18,384 nucleotides of DNA. Source: a virus (Duplodnaviria; Heunggongvirae; Uroviricota; Caudoviricetes). Under the pieces are notes generated by a model, which did no database searches, was not told the DNA's origin, and saw nothing but the letters and a program-made list of their open reading frames with translations. Positions 3,022 to 10,260 of this stretch are shown piece after piece (the first letter of the stretch is position 1; each line of letters opens with the position of its first letter). The position numbers and the translations under genes are program-made. The stretch lies in the IMG/VR virus record IMGVR_UViG_2645727539_000015; one strand, 5' to 3'.

Positions 3022-3263
3022 CAGGGTATCAGTTAGCCGGCGAAATTTTTAAATACCTCACAATTCAGCAAGTTTATGATTGTCTGGCTGACTGCGAATT
3101 TGTTAAAAATCGCGTCGCATGGTGAATCCCCCTCAGCGGCGGGGCATATCAGTACAGGTGTTTTCGTTTAGCCTTATCCTTTCTGTGCGGGTTCAGGTAC
3201 TGATACTGAACTCACCGGGAGGCACCCGGCACCATGCAGTATACAGAGATTAGGCATATCACC

Positions 3264-3289
3264 AGCCCCCTCTTCGGAGGGGGCTTTTT
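3264..3289 (+). terminator. rho-independent terminator (9-bp stem, UUCG tetraloop, T5)
   Basis: AGCCCCCTC-TTCG-GAGGGGGCT followed by TTTTT 3285-3289. Confidence 0.6.
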
Positions 3290-3386
3290 ACATGCAAAAA
3301 AAGCCCGCGTAGGGGGCGGGCGGTAAGAAATAAAACAAAACGTGAAGAAAATTATTCAGCTATTGGATAATACCTGAGGATTATGA

Positions 3387-3497: not shown

Positions 3498-5411
3498 ATG
3501 GCATTTAAACATTATGATGTGGTCAGGGCTGCGTCGCCTTCAGACCTTGCGGAGCGACTGACACAAAAACTGAAGGAAGGCTGGCAGCCGTTTGGCAGCC
3601 CGGTCGCCATTACCCCTTATACCCTGATGCAGGCGATTGCCGCAGAAGGGGATGTCACCACGCCTGTCGTGGTGACACCGGAGGAAGGCGGTGCGGTGGT
3701 GAGCGATCCGACCCGTGAGCCTGAATATTACTATGTGCTGGTCACCGCAGGTCAGTCCAACAATATGGCAACCGGCGAAGGTATGCCCCTGCCTGACAGC
3801 TACGACCGTCCCGATCCACGCATTAAGCAGCTGGCCCGCCGCAGTGTGGTCCGACCGGGTGGTGCTGCCTGTAAATACAACGATGTGATTGAGGCCGATC
3901 ACTGTCTCCATGACGTTGAAGACATGAGTGCCAAAAATCACCCCAACGCGGACCTTTCCCGTGGTCAGTATGGTTGTGTCGGGCACGGCCTGCATATTGC
4001 CAAACGTCTTCTGCCCTATATTCCGGTTAATGCGGGGATCCTGATTGTGCCGTGCAGTCGTGGTGGCTCTGCGTTTACCGATCGTGATGAGGGTACCTAT
4101 AACCCGGAGACGGGGGCAACAGCGGATTCCTCCCGCTGGGGTGTGGGTAAACCGTTGTACATGGATTTAATTGCCCGCACGAAGGCGGCCCTTGAAAAGA
4201 ATCCGAAAAACGTCCTGCTGGCCGTGTACTGGATGCAGGGCGAGGGTGACTGTATGTCTTCAGGTTACACGGGGCATCCGGCGTTGTTTACGGCCATGGT
4301 GAAACAGTTCCGTACCGATCTAGCCGCGTATGCCGGTCAGTGCCTGGGCGGCGATGCGGCCCGTGTACCCTGGGTATGTGGTGACACCACCTTCTGGTGG
4401 AAGCAACAGTACCCGACACAATACAGCCTGGTTTATGGCGCGTACCGTAAAAACAGTGAGCCGAATGTGCATTTTGTCGAACTCATGAAGGATGAGACCG
4501 GTGCGAATGTTCCGACCAATAACCCGGCAGAAGATCCGGATGTGCCGGAAGCAAATTATTACGGTGCAGCATCACGCACGGCGGGTAACTGGACGAACCC
4601 GACACGCGCCATGCATTTCAGTTCCTGGGCCCGTCGCGGCATCCTGCCGGACCGTATAGCCACCGCAATCCTGACCCATGCAGGGCGTAACGGACCGTTC
4701 CTTGCCGGTGGAGATATAACGGAAAACTATCCGGAACCGGCAAAACCGAAGAGTAACGTTACCACCCTGTACAGCGGTGCAGAAAGTGAAGGTGCTTATG
4801 CCGAACAGGGCTGGACGCTGAGCGAAGGTAAGGCGGAAGTGGTACAGGATGAAAGCAGTGCTTCCGGACGGGCGCTGAAACTGAGCCAGGATGAAGCAAT
4901 GAACCTGAAGCTGACCCGTGAAGTGGCAAATGCGGCGGAACTGCTGAAAAACGGCGGTAAAATTACCTGTCGTTTTAAAATACCGGGAAGTGCGAACGGA
5001 AAACAGATAGCCCTGGCGATGTATCTGCAGCTGAAGGAAAGCGATATCCCTGAAGGTGTGGAATTTGCCAATAAGGCGGACGGTACCCATCCGTTCCTGG
5101 TGGCGTTCTATCTGCAGACAGAAACGGATGGCAAACTCAGTCTGATGCACAATGGTGCAGCGCAGACGCGTGTTGCGGGATACGGTACGCTGAACAGTGA
5201 ATGGCACACACTGGAGCTGGTATATCCGGGAGGAGGCCAGAACACGGTGACGCCGTATGTTGATACGGTAAAAGCTCCGACCACACAGCTGTCCTGGTTT
5301 AAATATGAAGGACAGGAGAACACGCTTATTCTGACGGATGCGTCGAATACAGCCACGTATGAAACGTGGATTGACGCGCTGACAGTGGAAGTAAACAGTC
5401 CGGCAGCCTGA
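3498..5411 (+). CDS. nanS-p: prophage NanS-p-type sialate (9-O-acetyl-Neu5Ac) O-acetylesterase, 637 aa
   Basis: ATG 3498 with GGGAGGA 5 nt upstream. N-terminus MAFKHYDVVRAASPSDLAERL is DUF1737-like, followed by a sialate-O-acetylesterase/SGNH-type region (YYYVLVTAGQSNNMATGEG) and a C-terminal domain. The position after the tRNA triplet matches the large esterase ORF of Stx-converting phages as I recall it. Confidence 0.85.
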   Translation: MAFKHYDVVRAASPSDLAERLTQKLKEGWQPFGSPVAITPYTLMQAIAAEGDVTTPVVVTPEEGGAVVSDPTREPEYYYVLVTAGQSNNMATGEGMPLPDSYDRPDPRIKQLARRSVVRPGGAACKYNDVIEADHCLHDVEDMSAKNHPNADLSRGQYGCVGHGLHIAKRLLPYIPVNAGILIVPCSRGGSAFTDRDEGTYNPETGATADSSRWGVGKPLYMDLIARTKAALEKNPKNVLLAVYWMQGEGDCMSSGYTGHPALFTAMVKQFRTDLAAYAGQCLGGDAARVPWVCGDTTFWWKQQYPTQYSLVYGAYRKNSEPNVHFVELMKDETGANVPTNNPAEDPDVPEANYYGAASRTAGNWTNPTRAMHFSSWARRGILPDRIATAILTHAGRNGPFLAGGDITENYPEPAKPKSNVTTLYSGAESEGAYAEQGWTLSEGKAEVVQDESSASGRALKLSQDEAMNLKLTREVANAAELLKNGGKITCRFKIPGSANGKQIALAMYLQLKESDIPEGVEFANKADGTHPFLVAFYLQTETDGKLSLMHNGAAQTRVAGYGTLNSEWHTLELVYPGGGQNTVTPYVDTVKAPTTQLSWFKYEGQENTLILTDASNTATYETWIDALTVEVNSPAA

Positions 5412-7919: not shown

Positions 7920-8414
7920 ATGAACCGCGTTCTGTGTGTGGTCATCATTGCCCTGCTGGTGGCCTGTGGTGCGCTTAGTCTGGGGCTGAATCATTACCGC
8001 GATAACGCCATTACCTACAAAGCGCAGCGCGATAAAAAAGTCAGTGAGCTGAAACTGGCAAACGCAACCATTACTGATATGCAGCAGCGCCAGCGTGATG
8101 TTGCTGTGCTCGATGCAAAATACTCGAGGGAATTAGCCGATGCGAGAGCTGAAAATGAAACTCTGCGTGCTGATGTTGCCGCTGGTCGTAAGCGCCTGCG
8201 GATCAACGCCACCTGCTCAGGTACCGTGCGTGAAGCCACCGGCACCTCCGGCGTGGATAATGCAACCGGCCCCCGATTGGCAGACACCGCTGAACGGGAT
8301 TATTTCATCCTCAGAGAACGGTTGATGACAATGCAGAAGCAGCTGGAAGGGGCGCAGGAATATATCCGCACTCAGTGCACTAAGCTGGCTTTTTATTATC
8401 CGGAGGATACATGA
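7920..8414 (+). CDS. Rz: i-spanin Rz
   Basis: N-terminal TM then [45 protein letters not shown]...[22 protein letters not shown], very close to lambda Rz; GAGGGGG SD. Confidence 0.85.
8140..8325 (+). CDS. Rz1: o-spanin Rz1 lipoprotein, embedded in the +1 frame of Rz
   Basis: [20 protein letters not shown] lipobox followed by proline-rich [32 protein letters not shown], lambda Rz1-like; lies wholly inside Rz. Confidence 0.8.
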
Positions 8415-8635
8415 AGAAATTACTGGTAACCGTAAAGCCTTTTCAGGGAACAATTCCGTTCCGTATTTTGCAGCGTGGTCGTGTTCTTGTTGAAGGTTCG
8501 TTCAGTGGTAAATGTACGCAATTACACACCCGGACCTTTCAGGTGAATGCCACGAATGAAGCGCTAACCGTTGAGTGTACGATGAATGCCGCTAAATGCC
8601 GCATGGTATCCGCTGCATTACAGCCAGTGTGTTGA
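8411..8635 (+). CDS. hypothetical protein (74 aa)
   Basis: ATG overlaps the Rz stop (ATGA), suggesting translational coupling; no recognisable domain. Confidence 0.3.
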
Positions 8636-8973
8636 GTGACCTTATTATCCATACGCGGTATTGTCGCCGTATTCCTGCATTAACAGAGACCGCAGCCCGA
8701 CAGGGAGACTACTCTGCGCGAGTGTGCGGGGGTAATCAAAAACGATACACACCGGGGTTTACCGCGTTAACGGAGCGCGGCGTTGTCCCCTCATGGTCGC
8801 CTGTCCGGTGCGATGGTGGAAGAAACTGGACGAAGTGTTACCTCGCAAGCCCTGTTATGCCATGTGTCTGATTTGTGATTTAAGTCGGATAATTGTCGTT
8901 GCCATTAAGCAGAGGATTGATGACCGACAGGGTGGCATTGTTAGAATAAGACTTATTCTTATCTGTGCCGGGA

Positions 8974-9300
8974 ATGAAAAGAAATCTTCCGTTAATTATT
9001 TTGTTGTCTTCTCTGGTTATGGGGTGTTCGCAACATAAAACTGATATGCCACGACAGTTGGTTAAGGCGTTACCACAATATCCGGAATATGCAGCAGCTA
9101 ATCACATTAAGGGGCGTGTTGATGTGAAGTTTGATATTGGTGCTGATGGTACTGTCACCCGAATTGAGTTTATCCGTTCAGAACCGCACCATCTGTTTGA
9201 TGACCAGGTTGTAAAGGCGATGGCAAAATGGCGATTTGAGGAGGGCAAGCCGCGTAAAGGCGTGAAGAAAACATTTATCTTTAGTCCTTCTGCGCCCTGA
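8974..9300 (+). CDS. lipoprotein with TonB C-terminal-like domain (108 aa)
   Basis: MKRNLPLIILLSSLVMGC lipoprotein signal with lipobox Cys; ALPQYPEYAAANHIKGRVDVKFDIGADGTVTRIEFIRSEPHHLFDDQVVKAMAKWRFE matches the TonB_C signature (P-YP...G-V-V-F-V...G-V...FD-A...A...W-F). The track start GTG 8965 is less likely than ATG 8974. Confidence 0.7.
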   Translation: MKRNLPLIILLSSLVMGCSQHKTDMPRQLVKALPQYPEYAAANHIKGRVDVKFDIGADGTVTRIEFIRSEPHHLFDDQVVKAMAKWRFEEGKPRKGVKKTFIFSPSAP

Positions 9301-9432
9301 TTATTTTTAACAGAAACTAATTATCACTGTGTTGTTATTCTGTACATCCCGGCAGGTAAAGTCTTGTTCCGCCGGATATGACGATGAAATATTGTTGGAG
9401 GACAGAGGTTATCTGCTCCTGTAACCGAACGT

Positions 9433-9633
9433 TCATTTCTCGTTATTTGTCATGCTGACCGGGCGCAGATGCGTTGCATTTGTTGCCAGCCTTCTCCTGC
9501 AGGCTTCAATAACCCACGCTGAAAAGTTACCGGAACCTTTATGTTCAAGGGCGATATTGATCTGTTCAATCATGTGATTGGGGAAACGGATATTGCGGGT
9601 TGTGGTTCTGCGGGTCCGGTTTTTCGATGACAT
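9433..9633 (-). CDS. small ribbon-helix-helix (Arc/CopG-type) DNA-binding protein, resembling DLP12 YlcI (DUF3950) as far as I can recall
   Basis: Minus-strand ORF of 66 aa; RNIRFPNHMIEQINIALEHKGSGNFSAWVIEACRRRL has the beta-strand plus two-helix RHH layout; AGAGGA upstream of its ATG; divergent from the HNH gene. Confidence 0.6.
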   Translation of the reverse strand: MSSKNRTRRTTTRNIRFPNHMIEQINIALEHKGSGNFSAWVIEACRRRLATNATHLRPVSMTNNEK

Positions 9634-10130: not shown

Positions 10131-10260
10131 GCCAGTTAACATGTTAACTGGCTGTCCGGGCATTTTTGCGGTTTTTATCTTTATTATTCAGTTTGTTGTG
10201 CGAAAAAAATGTTAACTGGCTTTTTCAGCAAATGTTAACCAGGCAGCAGTTAACATTTGC
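10131..10260. repeat. cos/pac-like recognition region: 22-bp perfect palindrome plus repeated ATGTTAAC motifs
   Basis: GCCAGTTAACATGTTAACTGGC (10131-10152) is its own reverse complement. Further ATGTTAAC/GTTAACAT copies occur at 10209-10216, 10232-10239 and 10250-10257, separated by an AT-rich block, in the HNH-terS intergenic region. Confidence 0.45.

Follow-up and report, generated by a model that had tools for sequence, protein, structure and literature searches.

What does a lambdoid prophage gain from a small lipoprotein that carries a piece of TonB, and how is such a gene switched on? We have addressed this question with the virus record IMGVR_UViG_2645727539_000015 (Caudoviricetes), a stretch of 18,384 nucleotides (nt) that is called the window below and that represents the late part of a lambdoid prophage of E. 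coli. The gene under study occupies positions 8974–9300 of the plus strand (ATG at 8974, stop codon at 9298–9300) and encodes a TonB_C-only lipoprotein of 108 amino acids (aa), in the allelic form that we refer to as type A. The original prediction, made from the letters of the sequence, had described a TonB-mimicking cargo lipoprotein that might interfere with phages and colicins, sitting where lambdoid phages often carry bor and preceded by a palindrome within a promoter. According to our analyses, the protein is a TonB_C-domain lipoprotein, and it may act as an iron-regulated decoy for TonB boxes, i.e., as a moron lipoprotein that would lower the TonB-dependent entry of phages and bacteriocins. 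We put this function forward tentatively, as a possible reading rather than a probable one.

A TonB C-terminal domain in a small lipoprotein

The open reading frame (ORF), the signal peptide and the lipobox that had been predicted are all present, as judged by pattern matching. Residues 1–18 (8974–9027, plus strand) read MKRNLPLIILLSSLVMG followed by the lipobox Cys18, whose codon lies at 9025–9027, and the residue at +2 is Ser; the stretch LVMG-C fits the PROSITE PS51257-type pattern. The same pattern is found in nine of the ten lipoprotein relatives checked, including the second allelic form, type B. In the exception (P0042) the PROSITE-type pattern fails at position −4, yet the sequence ends in LSAC. 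By the +2 rule, the residue after the lipobox Cys predicts how a lipoprotein is sorted, with Ser pointing to the outer membrane. From the lipobox and the +2 Ser, lipidation and outer-membrane sorting are thus predicted for the 108-aa protein. Exactly this protein is already on record as 'TonB family protein [Escherichia coli]'.

On the profile, sequence and modelled-fold evidence, which supports it fully, the mature part of the cargo lipoprotein is a TonB C-terminal domain (CTD). The domain covers residues 26–104 (9049–9285, plus strand), corresponding to residues 153–231 of E. coli TonB, with which the identity is 40.5%. In the Pfam scan, PF03544 scores 58.7 bits against a cutoff of 24.6 (E = 8e-16), and in the NCBIfam scan TIGR01352 scores 57.0 bits against 27.1 (E = 1.8e-15). 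A phmmer search against the PDB returns the E. coli and Salmonella TonB CTDs with E-values of 6e-17 to 1e-16 (1u07: 1e-16). We have also built an AlphaFold2 model from a family alignment of 14 sequences, and its predicted local distance difference test (pLDDT) score is 86.6 overall and above 95 over residues 30–100. With template modelling (TM) scores normalised to the target, Foldseek aligns the model to TonB in complex with BtuB (2gsk_B) at a TM of 0.92 and a root-mean-square deviation of 1.0 Å, and to TonB in complex with FhuA (2grx_C) at 0.92 and 1.1 Å. Fold and family profile are in common with the TonB CTDs of E. coli and Salmonella (PDB 1U07, 2GSK, 2GRX, 8RD6), and the TonB C-terminal fold claimed from the sequence is borne out well above the PF03544 threshold. 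In the alignment, Y36/P37, G47, F53, G59, F75, W86 and F103 fall on Y163/P164, G174, F180, G186, F202, W213 and F230 of TonB, so that both the YP motif and the core of aromatic residues and glycines are retained. The C-terminus reads SPSAP and lacks the last ~8 residues of TonB.

On the other hand, the remainder of TonB is missing. A tether of ~8 residues leads from Cys18 to the domain, and there is neither the N-terminal inner-membrane anchor, which serves the coupling to ExbB/ExbD, nor the proline-rich spacer. Accordingly small are the scores of the TonB equivalog models (NCBIfam PRK10819), which reach 47–75 bits against cutoffs of 265–448 and cover the C-terminal ~70–85 profile positions only. 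Since anchor and spacer are absent, we call the product a TonB_C-domain protein and not a TonB, and for the same reason the delivery of energy by this lipoprotein is impossible. Whereas TonB has its N-terminal membrane anchor, the lipoprotein would be held at the outer membrane by its predicted lipid.

A specialised member of the TonB family is already known from Pectobacterium, where FusB, a full-length inner-membrane TonB homologue, energises uptake. The CTD of FusB, which has a non-standard role (PDB 7ZC8, 9HI3), superposes on our model with a TM of 0.82–0.84, whereas the window protein is a C-terminal domain only.

Distribution, selection and relatives

The gene is common. By blastn it is found in 1618 of 5426 complete E. 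coli genomes (~30%), with O157:H7, O145, O111 and sequence type 131 (ST131) among the carrier strains, and each of the 29 listed matches over the gene itself bears the annotation 'TonB family protein'. Type A accounts for ~414 genomes at 90–95% DNA identity, and type B for ~1200 genomes at ~74%. At the protein level type B is ~71% identical to type A, and the synonymous divergence (dS) between the coding sequences is ~1.5. Named phage carriers are JLK-2012, Lys8385Vzw and Stx1a phages; in addition, relatives are encoded on 215 IMG/VR contigs, and the copy on one of them (L026) is 100% identical. That the gene is annotated and widespread is therefore known already, and what is new are two leads, namely the register of the Fur boxes and the linkage to colicin genes described below.

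The gene is under purifying selection: the ratio of the non-synonymous to the synonymous rate (dN/dS, Nei-Gojobori) lies at 0.12–0.17, whether type A copies are compared with each other or with type B. Among the type B relatives P0009, P0011–P0014, P0019 and P0021, several diverge or extend past ~residue 90, with frameshift-like C-termini at the last beta strand. Judging from these C-termini, some genomes seem to harbour a decaying copy of the gene.

In an ST131 prophage, iss, which is the homologue of bor, immediately precedes the type B gene. The slot of bor is therefore occupied jointly, and bor is not replaced by the gene. The expectation that it stands in the position of bor is right to the extent that the slot between Rz and the terminase also hosts bor/iss, but this place is held along with bor, not instead of it. 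With Bor/Iss the window gene has in common the slot from Rz to the packaging genes and the type of a moron outer-membrane lipoprotein, whereas the sequences are unrelated (there is no Bor match) and the orientation is opposite.

An exhaustive HMMER search has revealed further short TonB_C-only proteins of 107–133 aa, most of them with a lipobox. Against the query, TonB_C-only relatives score up to ~100 bits and canonical TonB C-termini ~64 bits. Chromosomal homologues occur in Raoultella and Klebsiella, near lacZ- and lacI-like genes, and in Erwinia. Two prophages carry a homologue in the same slot between Rz and the terminase although they are quite different from that of the window, i.e., a Sodalis prophage (52% identity), with RusA, Q, lysozyme, DUF1441 and a GpA terminase, and a Rahnella prophage (35% identity).

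Other relatives have colicin or defence-type neighbours. In Serratia, a TonB_C-only gene is accompanied by a colicin-E1-type immunity gene and a convergent pore-forming colicin gene (L108, 5001–7510; L111, 5001–7447), and this module occurs in two backgrounds, one chromosomal and one plasmid-like. The Serratia TonB_C-only protein is periplasmic, having a signal-peptidase I type signal and not a lipobox, and the colicin carries DSMTV at residues 18–22, which we take to resemble the TonB boxes of group B colicins. On a plasmid-like contig with ParM/StbA, a TonB_C-only gene is located beside a KAP-NTPase/QatB pair (L110, 5001–9646), and another lies beside the gene of a 786-aa SIR2_2 protein (L114, 1840–5300). 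These last two neighbourhoods resemble defence islands.

Fur boxes, a candidate promoter and a palindrome

We have scanned the whole locus of each relative (8–12 kb) for matches to the 19-bp Fur consensus GATAATGATAATCATTATC. Directly before the homologue, the match is 17/19 in the Sodalis prophage (L013), 16/19 in Erwinia typographi (L014) and in Klebsiella sp. (L009), 15/19 in four Raoultella loci (L005–L008), and 14/19 at a second Raoultella planticola paralogue (L010). In L005, L006, L009, L013 and L014 this is the single best match of the locus, and in L007, L008 and L010 it is joint best, with one other position equal to it. The 19-mer ends 9–11 nt before the ATG in L005, L009, L013 and L014, which is the register of the window, and 15 and 18 nt before it in L008 and L010, respectively. 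Such strong Fur boxes before the homologues of the relatives indicate that the family was ancestrally Fur-controlled. In the window, a Fur-box-like 19-mer, GATAAGAATAAGTCTTATT, is located at 8945–8963 on the minus strand and ends 10 nt before the ATG. It matches the consensus at 13/19, which is the joint top score in the window (three sites reach 13), and 55 of 2000 leader shuffles (2.75%) attain this score.

The same place holds a perfect 8-1-8 palindrome, AGAATAAG-A-CTTATTCT (8943–8959), which both direct reading and an exact search recover precisely as it had first been noted. It overlaps a candidate −10 element and the +1 position. Actually, the promoter scan gives ATGACC-16-TAGAAT with an upstream TG at 8920–8947, made up of a −35-like ATGACC (8920–8925) and a candidate extended −10, TGtTAGAAT (8939–8947, plus strand), from which the transcript would start at ~8954. 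While the −35 is variable, TGTTAGAAT is invariant in 67 of 67 viral loci, and ATTGT[T/C]AGAATAAGAC is the best-conserved stretch of the AT-rich leader when type A is compared with type B, a pair whose coding sequences have diverged to a dS of ~1.5. As far as can be judged from these motifs, a promoter of its own, of the extended −10 type (TGtTAGAAT), is probable for the gene. The arrangement TTGTTA-N16-TATCTG, which had been taken for the promoter, has not withstood the scan: the string is present, but it is not listed, it has a G at the critical sixth position of the −10, and its end, 8 nt before the ATG, is too near to the start codon.

Among the type A viral loci, the palindrome is intact in 63 of 67, and the other four have CTTATTTT; its right arm is missing from type B. 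Nine centres of palindromes of comparable size (spacer ≤10) are found in the window; dinucleotide shuffles give 2.5±1.8. Several of the nine are likely to be terminators. The palindrome by itself proves little. Given its position, it is more likely an operator that overlaps the −10, possibly a decayed Fur box, than a part of the spacer of TTGTTA-N16-TATCTG. Lying where an operator is expected, the dyad of the window may be a decayed Fur box or the operator of another dimeric regulator.

The translation start has also changed in the window copy, where a Shine-Dalgarno-like GGGA (8970–8973, plus strand) abuts the start codon. We have compared the number of ATGAAA units at the gene start (region 8968–8979) between the window and the loci L001, L002 and L026–L105. 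There is a single unit only in the window and L026, two in most loci and three in two loci. Copies with two units have GGGA(A) 6–7 nt upstream of the ATG in use. The first ATG is ATA in 16 of the 67 viral loci, and thus the last ATG is the start. As the single unit, a deletion of 6 nt, sets GGGA against the ATG, translation of the window allele may be reduced.

A possible TonB-box decoy and its alternatives

The docking site of the TonB CTD is the TonB box, which TonB-dependent transporters and group B colicins carry. A lipoprotein tethered at the periplasmic face of the outer membrane could occupy these boxes and exclude the real TonB by competition, which we regard as the likeliest mode of action. 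TonB-dependent uptake would then fall, and TonB-dependent phages (T1 and phi80 types), colicins and microcins would enter less. Ancestrally, and perhaps still in the window copy, expression would rise under iron starvation, the condition in which receptor numbers peak, since the dyad overlaps the promoter at the place where the relatives have their Fur box. Promoter use, Fur control in the window copy, TonB-box binding and a protective phenotype are what we infer under this model. Taken together with the Fur boxes, the associations with colicin and defence genes, a reach limited to the periplasmic face, the inhibition precedent and the example of Llp, it is the most economical model. Overall, the early idea of interference with phages and colicins gains indirect support from three contexts in the relatives, i.e., their Fur boxes, the colicin-immunity link in Serratia and the Qat/SIR2 neighbours.

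The experiments with periplasmic TonB fragments and TonB-box peptides reportedly go back to Howard et al. in 2001 and to Tuckman and Osburne in 1992, both cited in PMC9841981. According to the summary given there, an overexpressed periplasmic TonB domain inhibits iron import, and a TonB-box peptide lowers colicin killing and phi80 infection. A CTD without energy coupling thus inhibits import, and these laboratory fragments and peptides are the direct mechanistic precedent for the decoy. They differ in that the laboratory fragments are soluble and overexpressed, whereas the window protein is natural, mobile, under purifying selection and predicted to be lipid-anchored. If the decoy model is true, the protein would be nature's equivalent of the dominant-negative TonB fragment used in the laboratory.

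The lipoproteins Llp (phage T5) and Cor (phi80, N15, HK022) offer another comparison. Like the window protein, they are small phage-encoded lipoproteins of the outer membrane, predicted or known as such, and the proposed logic of protection is alike. They act on a TonB-dependent transporter from the periplasmic side (bioRxiv 10.64898/2026.03.26.714494). We have found no fold kinship with Cor/Llp: all PDB matches at E≤0.001 are TonB-type, followed by weaker matches to TonB, HasB and TolA, and the FhuA:Llp complex 8A60 is absent among the 50 matches listed. A fold search of BFVD has given no match at E≤0.001. Since the window protein is not homologous to Cor/Llp, the analogy is functional only. 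Moreover, Llp is specific to FhuA and allosteric, whereas the window protein would target the generic TonB box, and, in contrast to Cor/Llp, the phages that carry the window protein do not appear to use FhuA-type tail tips, as seen from J of JLK-2012.

Several points weigh against the decoy or its iron regulation. The Fur-like site of the window is, with 13/19, weak as a sequence match, its centre is 3 nt off that of the palindrome, and no Fur-like site at the gene is found in the type B, Rahnella, Erwinia sp. MMLR14 and Serratia copies. The window allele may be poorly translated, as its start region suggests, and no terminator of its own is found on the plus strand across 9300–9432, the nearest being at 9462–9475 inside ylcI. 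Residues of TonB-box recognition are changed, with Q160 replaced by L, R166 by Y, and the pairing strand VVNILF by KKTFIF. The expected cost of a general TonB competitor is iron starvation of the cell itself, and the Fur-induced chromosomal orthologues of Raoultella, Klebsiella and Erwinia fit a helper at least as well as an inhibitor. We have obtained no match to the PADLOC defence models at E≤0.01 and have found no functional study of the protein in the literature. Self-exclusion by way of a FhuA-type tail tip was considered and rejected, for the J C-terminus of JLK-2012 is of the lambda/434 type and not of a known FhuA-binding one, which leaves the protein unconnected to the receptor of the phage itself.

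The main rival to the decoy is a positive role in iron uptake, which we consider unlikely. Under this explanation, an outer-membrane TonB domain, Fur-induced, might hold TonB boxes, pre-organise them, or pair with the TonB CTD, and the phage would carry the gene for fitness or virulence. Strong Fur boxes before the chromosomal orthologues, the conserved non-phage contexts in Raoultella, Klebsiella and Erwinia, the type B gene beside iss in ST131 prophages, and the presence of the gene in 30% of complete E. coli genomes are all in line with such a helper. Nevertheless, a protein without a transmembrane anchor and without the region that contacts ExbB/ExbD has no route to the proton motive force, and its equivalog scores stay far below the cutoffs of TonB. 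The linkage to colicin-immunity and defence-type genes fits protection better. Besides, for a free periplasmic TonB domain no effect other than inhibition has been published (PMC9841981).

The other explanations concern the envelope, lysis and the dyad. If the domain bound peptidoglycan or abundant outer-membrane proteins and not TonB boxes, it would stiffen the envelope and give Bor/Iss-like resistance to serum or stress, or modulate lysis. The slot held in common with bor/iss and the predicted outer-membrane lipoprotein agree with such a tether, and an association of the TonB C-terminus with peptidoglycan has been reported, which counts for it as well. We consider it improbable, however, since the Pfam scan has shown neither a Bor nor an OmpA-type match, the Fur boxes and the colicin linkage indicate the TonB pathway, and structurally the model comes closest to TonB with a bound TonB box. 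Even a full-length match over 8974–9297 to phrog_1267 (E = 5e-40), labelled 'Rz-like spanin, lysis', and the location downstream of the lysis cassette leave a spanin-like function very improbable: the window already has a complete Rz/Rz1 pair (PF03245, E = 2e-49; PF06085, E = 8e-22, both in the Pfam scan), the fold is that of the TonB CTD, and on chromosomes, on plasmids and beside colicin genes there are homologues that have no lysis genes around them. Probably, the label has been passed on during annotation. By comparison, it is well conceivable, though still short of likely, that the dyad arose by chance or was locally fixed and has no regulatory role; the gene would then be transcribed only by late-operon read-through or by a promoter without regulation. 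Nine such centres lie in the window, the right arm is absent from type B, the type A copies are too alike for a test of conservation, and the Fur score of 13/19 is equalled by two other window sites. Its position, on the other hand, corresponds to the strong Fur boxes of the relatives, it overlaps the best −10 candidate, and few leader shuffles (2.75%) score as high.

Returning to the decoy, we may extend it from this gene to its relatives. The secreted TonB_C-only proteins, lipid-anchored or periplasmic, could be an unrecognised mobile family of TonB-box decoys on prophages, in colicin clusters, on plasmids and on some chromosomes. They would often be Fur-controlled, would give broad protection against phages, colicins and microcins timed to iron starvation, and in colicin clusters would provide a second immunity at the level of import. 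This generalisation seems to us rather unlikely as it stands. Through the TonB pathway enter group B colicins, several microcins, albomycin-type antibiotics, siderophore-drug conjugates and many coliphages. If a mobile gene weakens this pathway, the competition among gut E. coli strains, the host range in phage therapy, the susceptibility to Trojan-horse antibiotics and iron-related virulence would be affected.

The insertion and its genomic setting

The gene order of the window runs from three tRNAs and an STnc100-type RNA over an Ant-like gene, Rz with embedded Rz1, and a 74-aa ORF, and then, after a gap, to the TonB_C gene, ylcI/ynfO on the opposite strand, an HNH endonuclease gene, terS and terL. 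The TonB_C gene is oriented in the sense of the late operon. We have derived the borders of the insertion from an alignment to PPyecE_EH1910, a phage without the gene, which has unrelated DNA between the GC-rich element described below and ynfO. As deduced from this alignment, the AT-rich leader, the gene and ~130 nt of 3' flank (~8842–9432, plus strand) form a moron-type insertion in the slot from Rz to the terminase of a lambdoid E. coli prophage. The flanks of the gene differ among JLK-2012, ST131, Sodalis and Rahnella. The right border of the insertion is the downstream neighbour ylcI/ynfO (9433–9633, minus strand), for which Pfam DUF3950 (E = 4e-20) and NCBIfam YlcI_YnfO_N agree with the RefSeq annotation of relatives. 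A minus-strand promoter-like GTGATA-16-AATAAT at 9300–9327 faces the 3' end of the gene in antisense orientation; sites of this kind are as numerous as expected by chance.

The neighbour on the upstream side is the 74-aa ORF (8411–8635, plus strand), whose start overlaps the stop of Rz and which serves here as context. It matches phrog_2571, a group of unknown function, and the Pfam and NCBIfam scans have given no match. A linkage of this ORF to the TonB_C gene has been rejected, because it is absent before the gene in JLK-2012; the ORF is also found in L003, a phage without the TonB_C gene. The Rahnella prophage has a 74-aa ORF in the equivalent position, which shows no homology to that of the window.

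The ~340 bp ahead of the gene had been described as a non-coding AT-rich leader. Non-coding it is, for we have found no credible ORF over 8636–8973, but the AT-rich part is confined to ~8842–8973, and the remainder is a separate, GC-rich element. The GC content is 54–61% over ~8650–8850 and 37–42% over ~8850–9050; it amounts to 36–45% in the leader and the 3' flank, and to 44–49% in the gene body. The GC-rich element (8650–8840) lies outside the TonB-like insertion and is a conserved non-coding element of lambdoid phages. It is nearly invariant across phages with or without the gene (without: PPyecE_EH1910), and in JLK-2012 it stands behind a different upstream gene. The 1-nt indels between its copies show that it is non-coding. 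A sensitive search has located it in 398 phage records, including mEp460, 434 and 933W-like phages, and in mEp460 and the 933W-like phages the packaging genes follow shortly after it. The phages that share the element differ in their packaging modules; it separates these from the lysis/moron region. In the lambda reference (45900–48502) it is absent.

The GC-rich element may be a recombination junction or an element of the late transcript. As a structured RNA it has been rejected, since the fold z-scores are ~0 on both strands and RNAalifold gives no net covariation. There is no Rfam match to it, and a small RNA of the AgvB/AsxR type or Pas has been discarded as well, as those are found at the pR' moron site or next to the esterase and holin genes. 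In PA28, one hairpin of the element is seemingly swapped for a different hairpin.

Further features are located away from the gene. A 22-bp perfect palindrome, GCCAGTTAACA-TGTTAACTGGC, is found at 10131–10152 between the HNH endonuclease gene and terS, where presumably phages with HNH and terminase genes would have their cos or terminase recognition site. At the other side of the window lie three tRNA genes (2010–2256) and a full-length match to STnc100 RNA (3087–3295, 159.9 bits), an order that is usual in Stx-type prophages downstream of Q/pR'. After STnc100 follows a 637-aa ORF (3498–5411); judged by position only, it is the counterpart of an esterase of the SASA family that is annotated ahead of the holin in L001.

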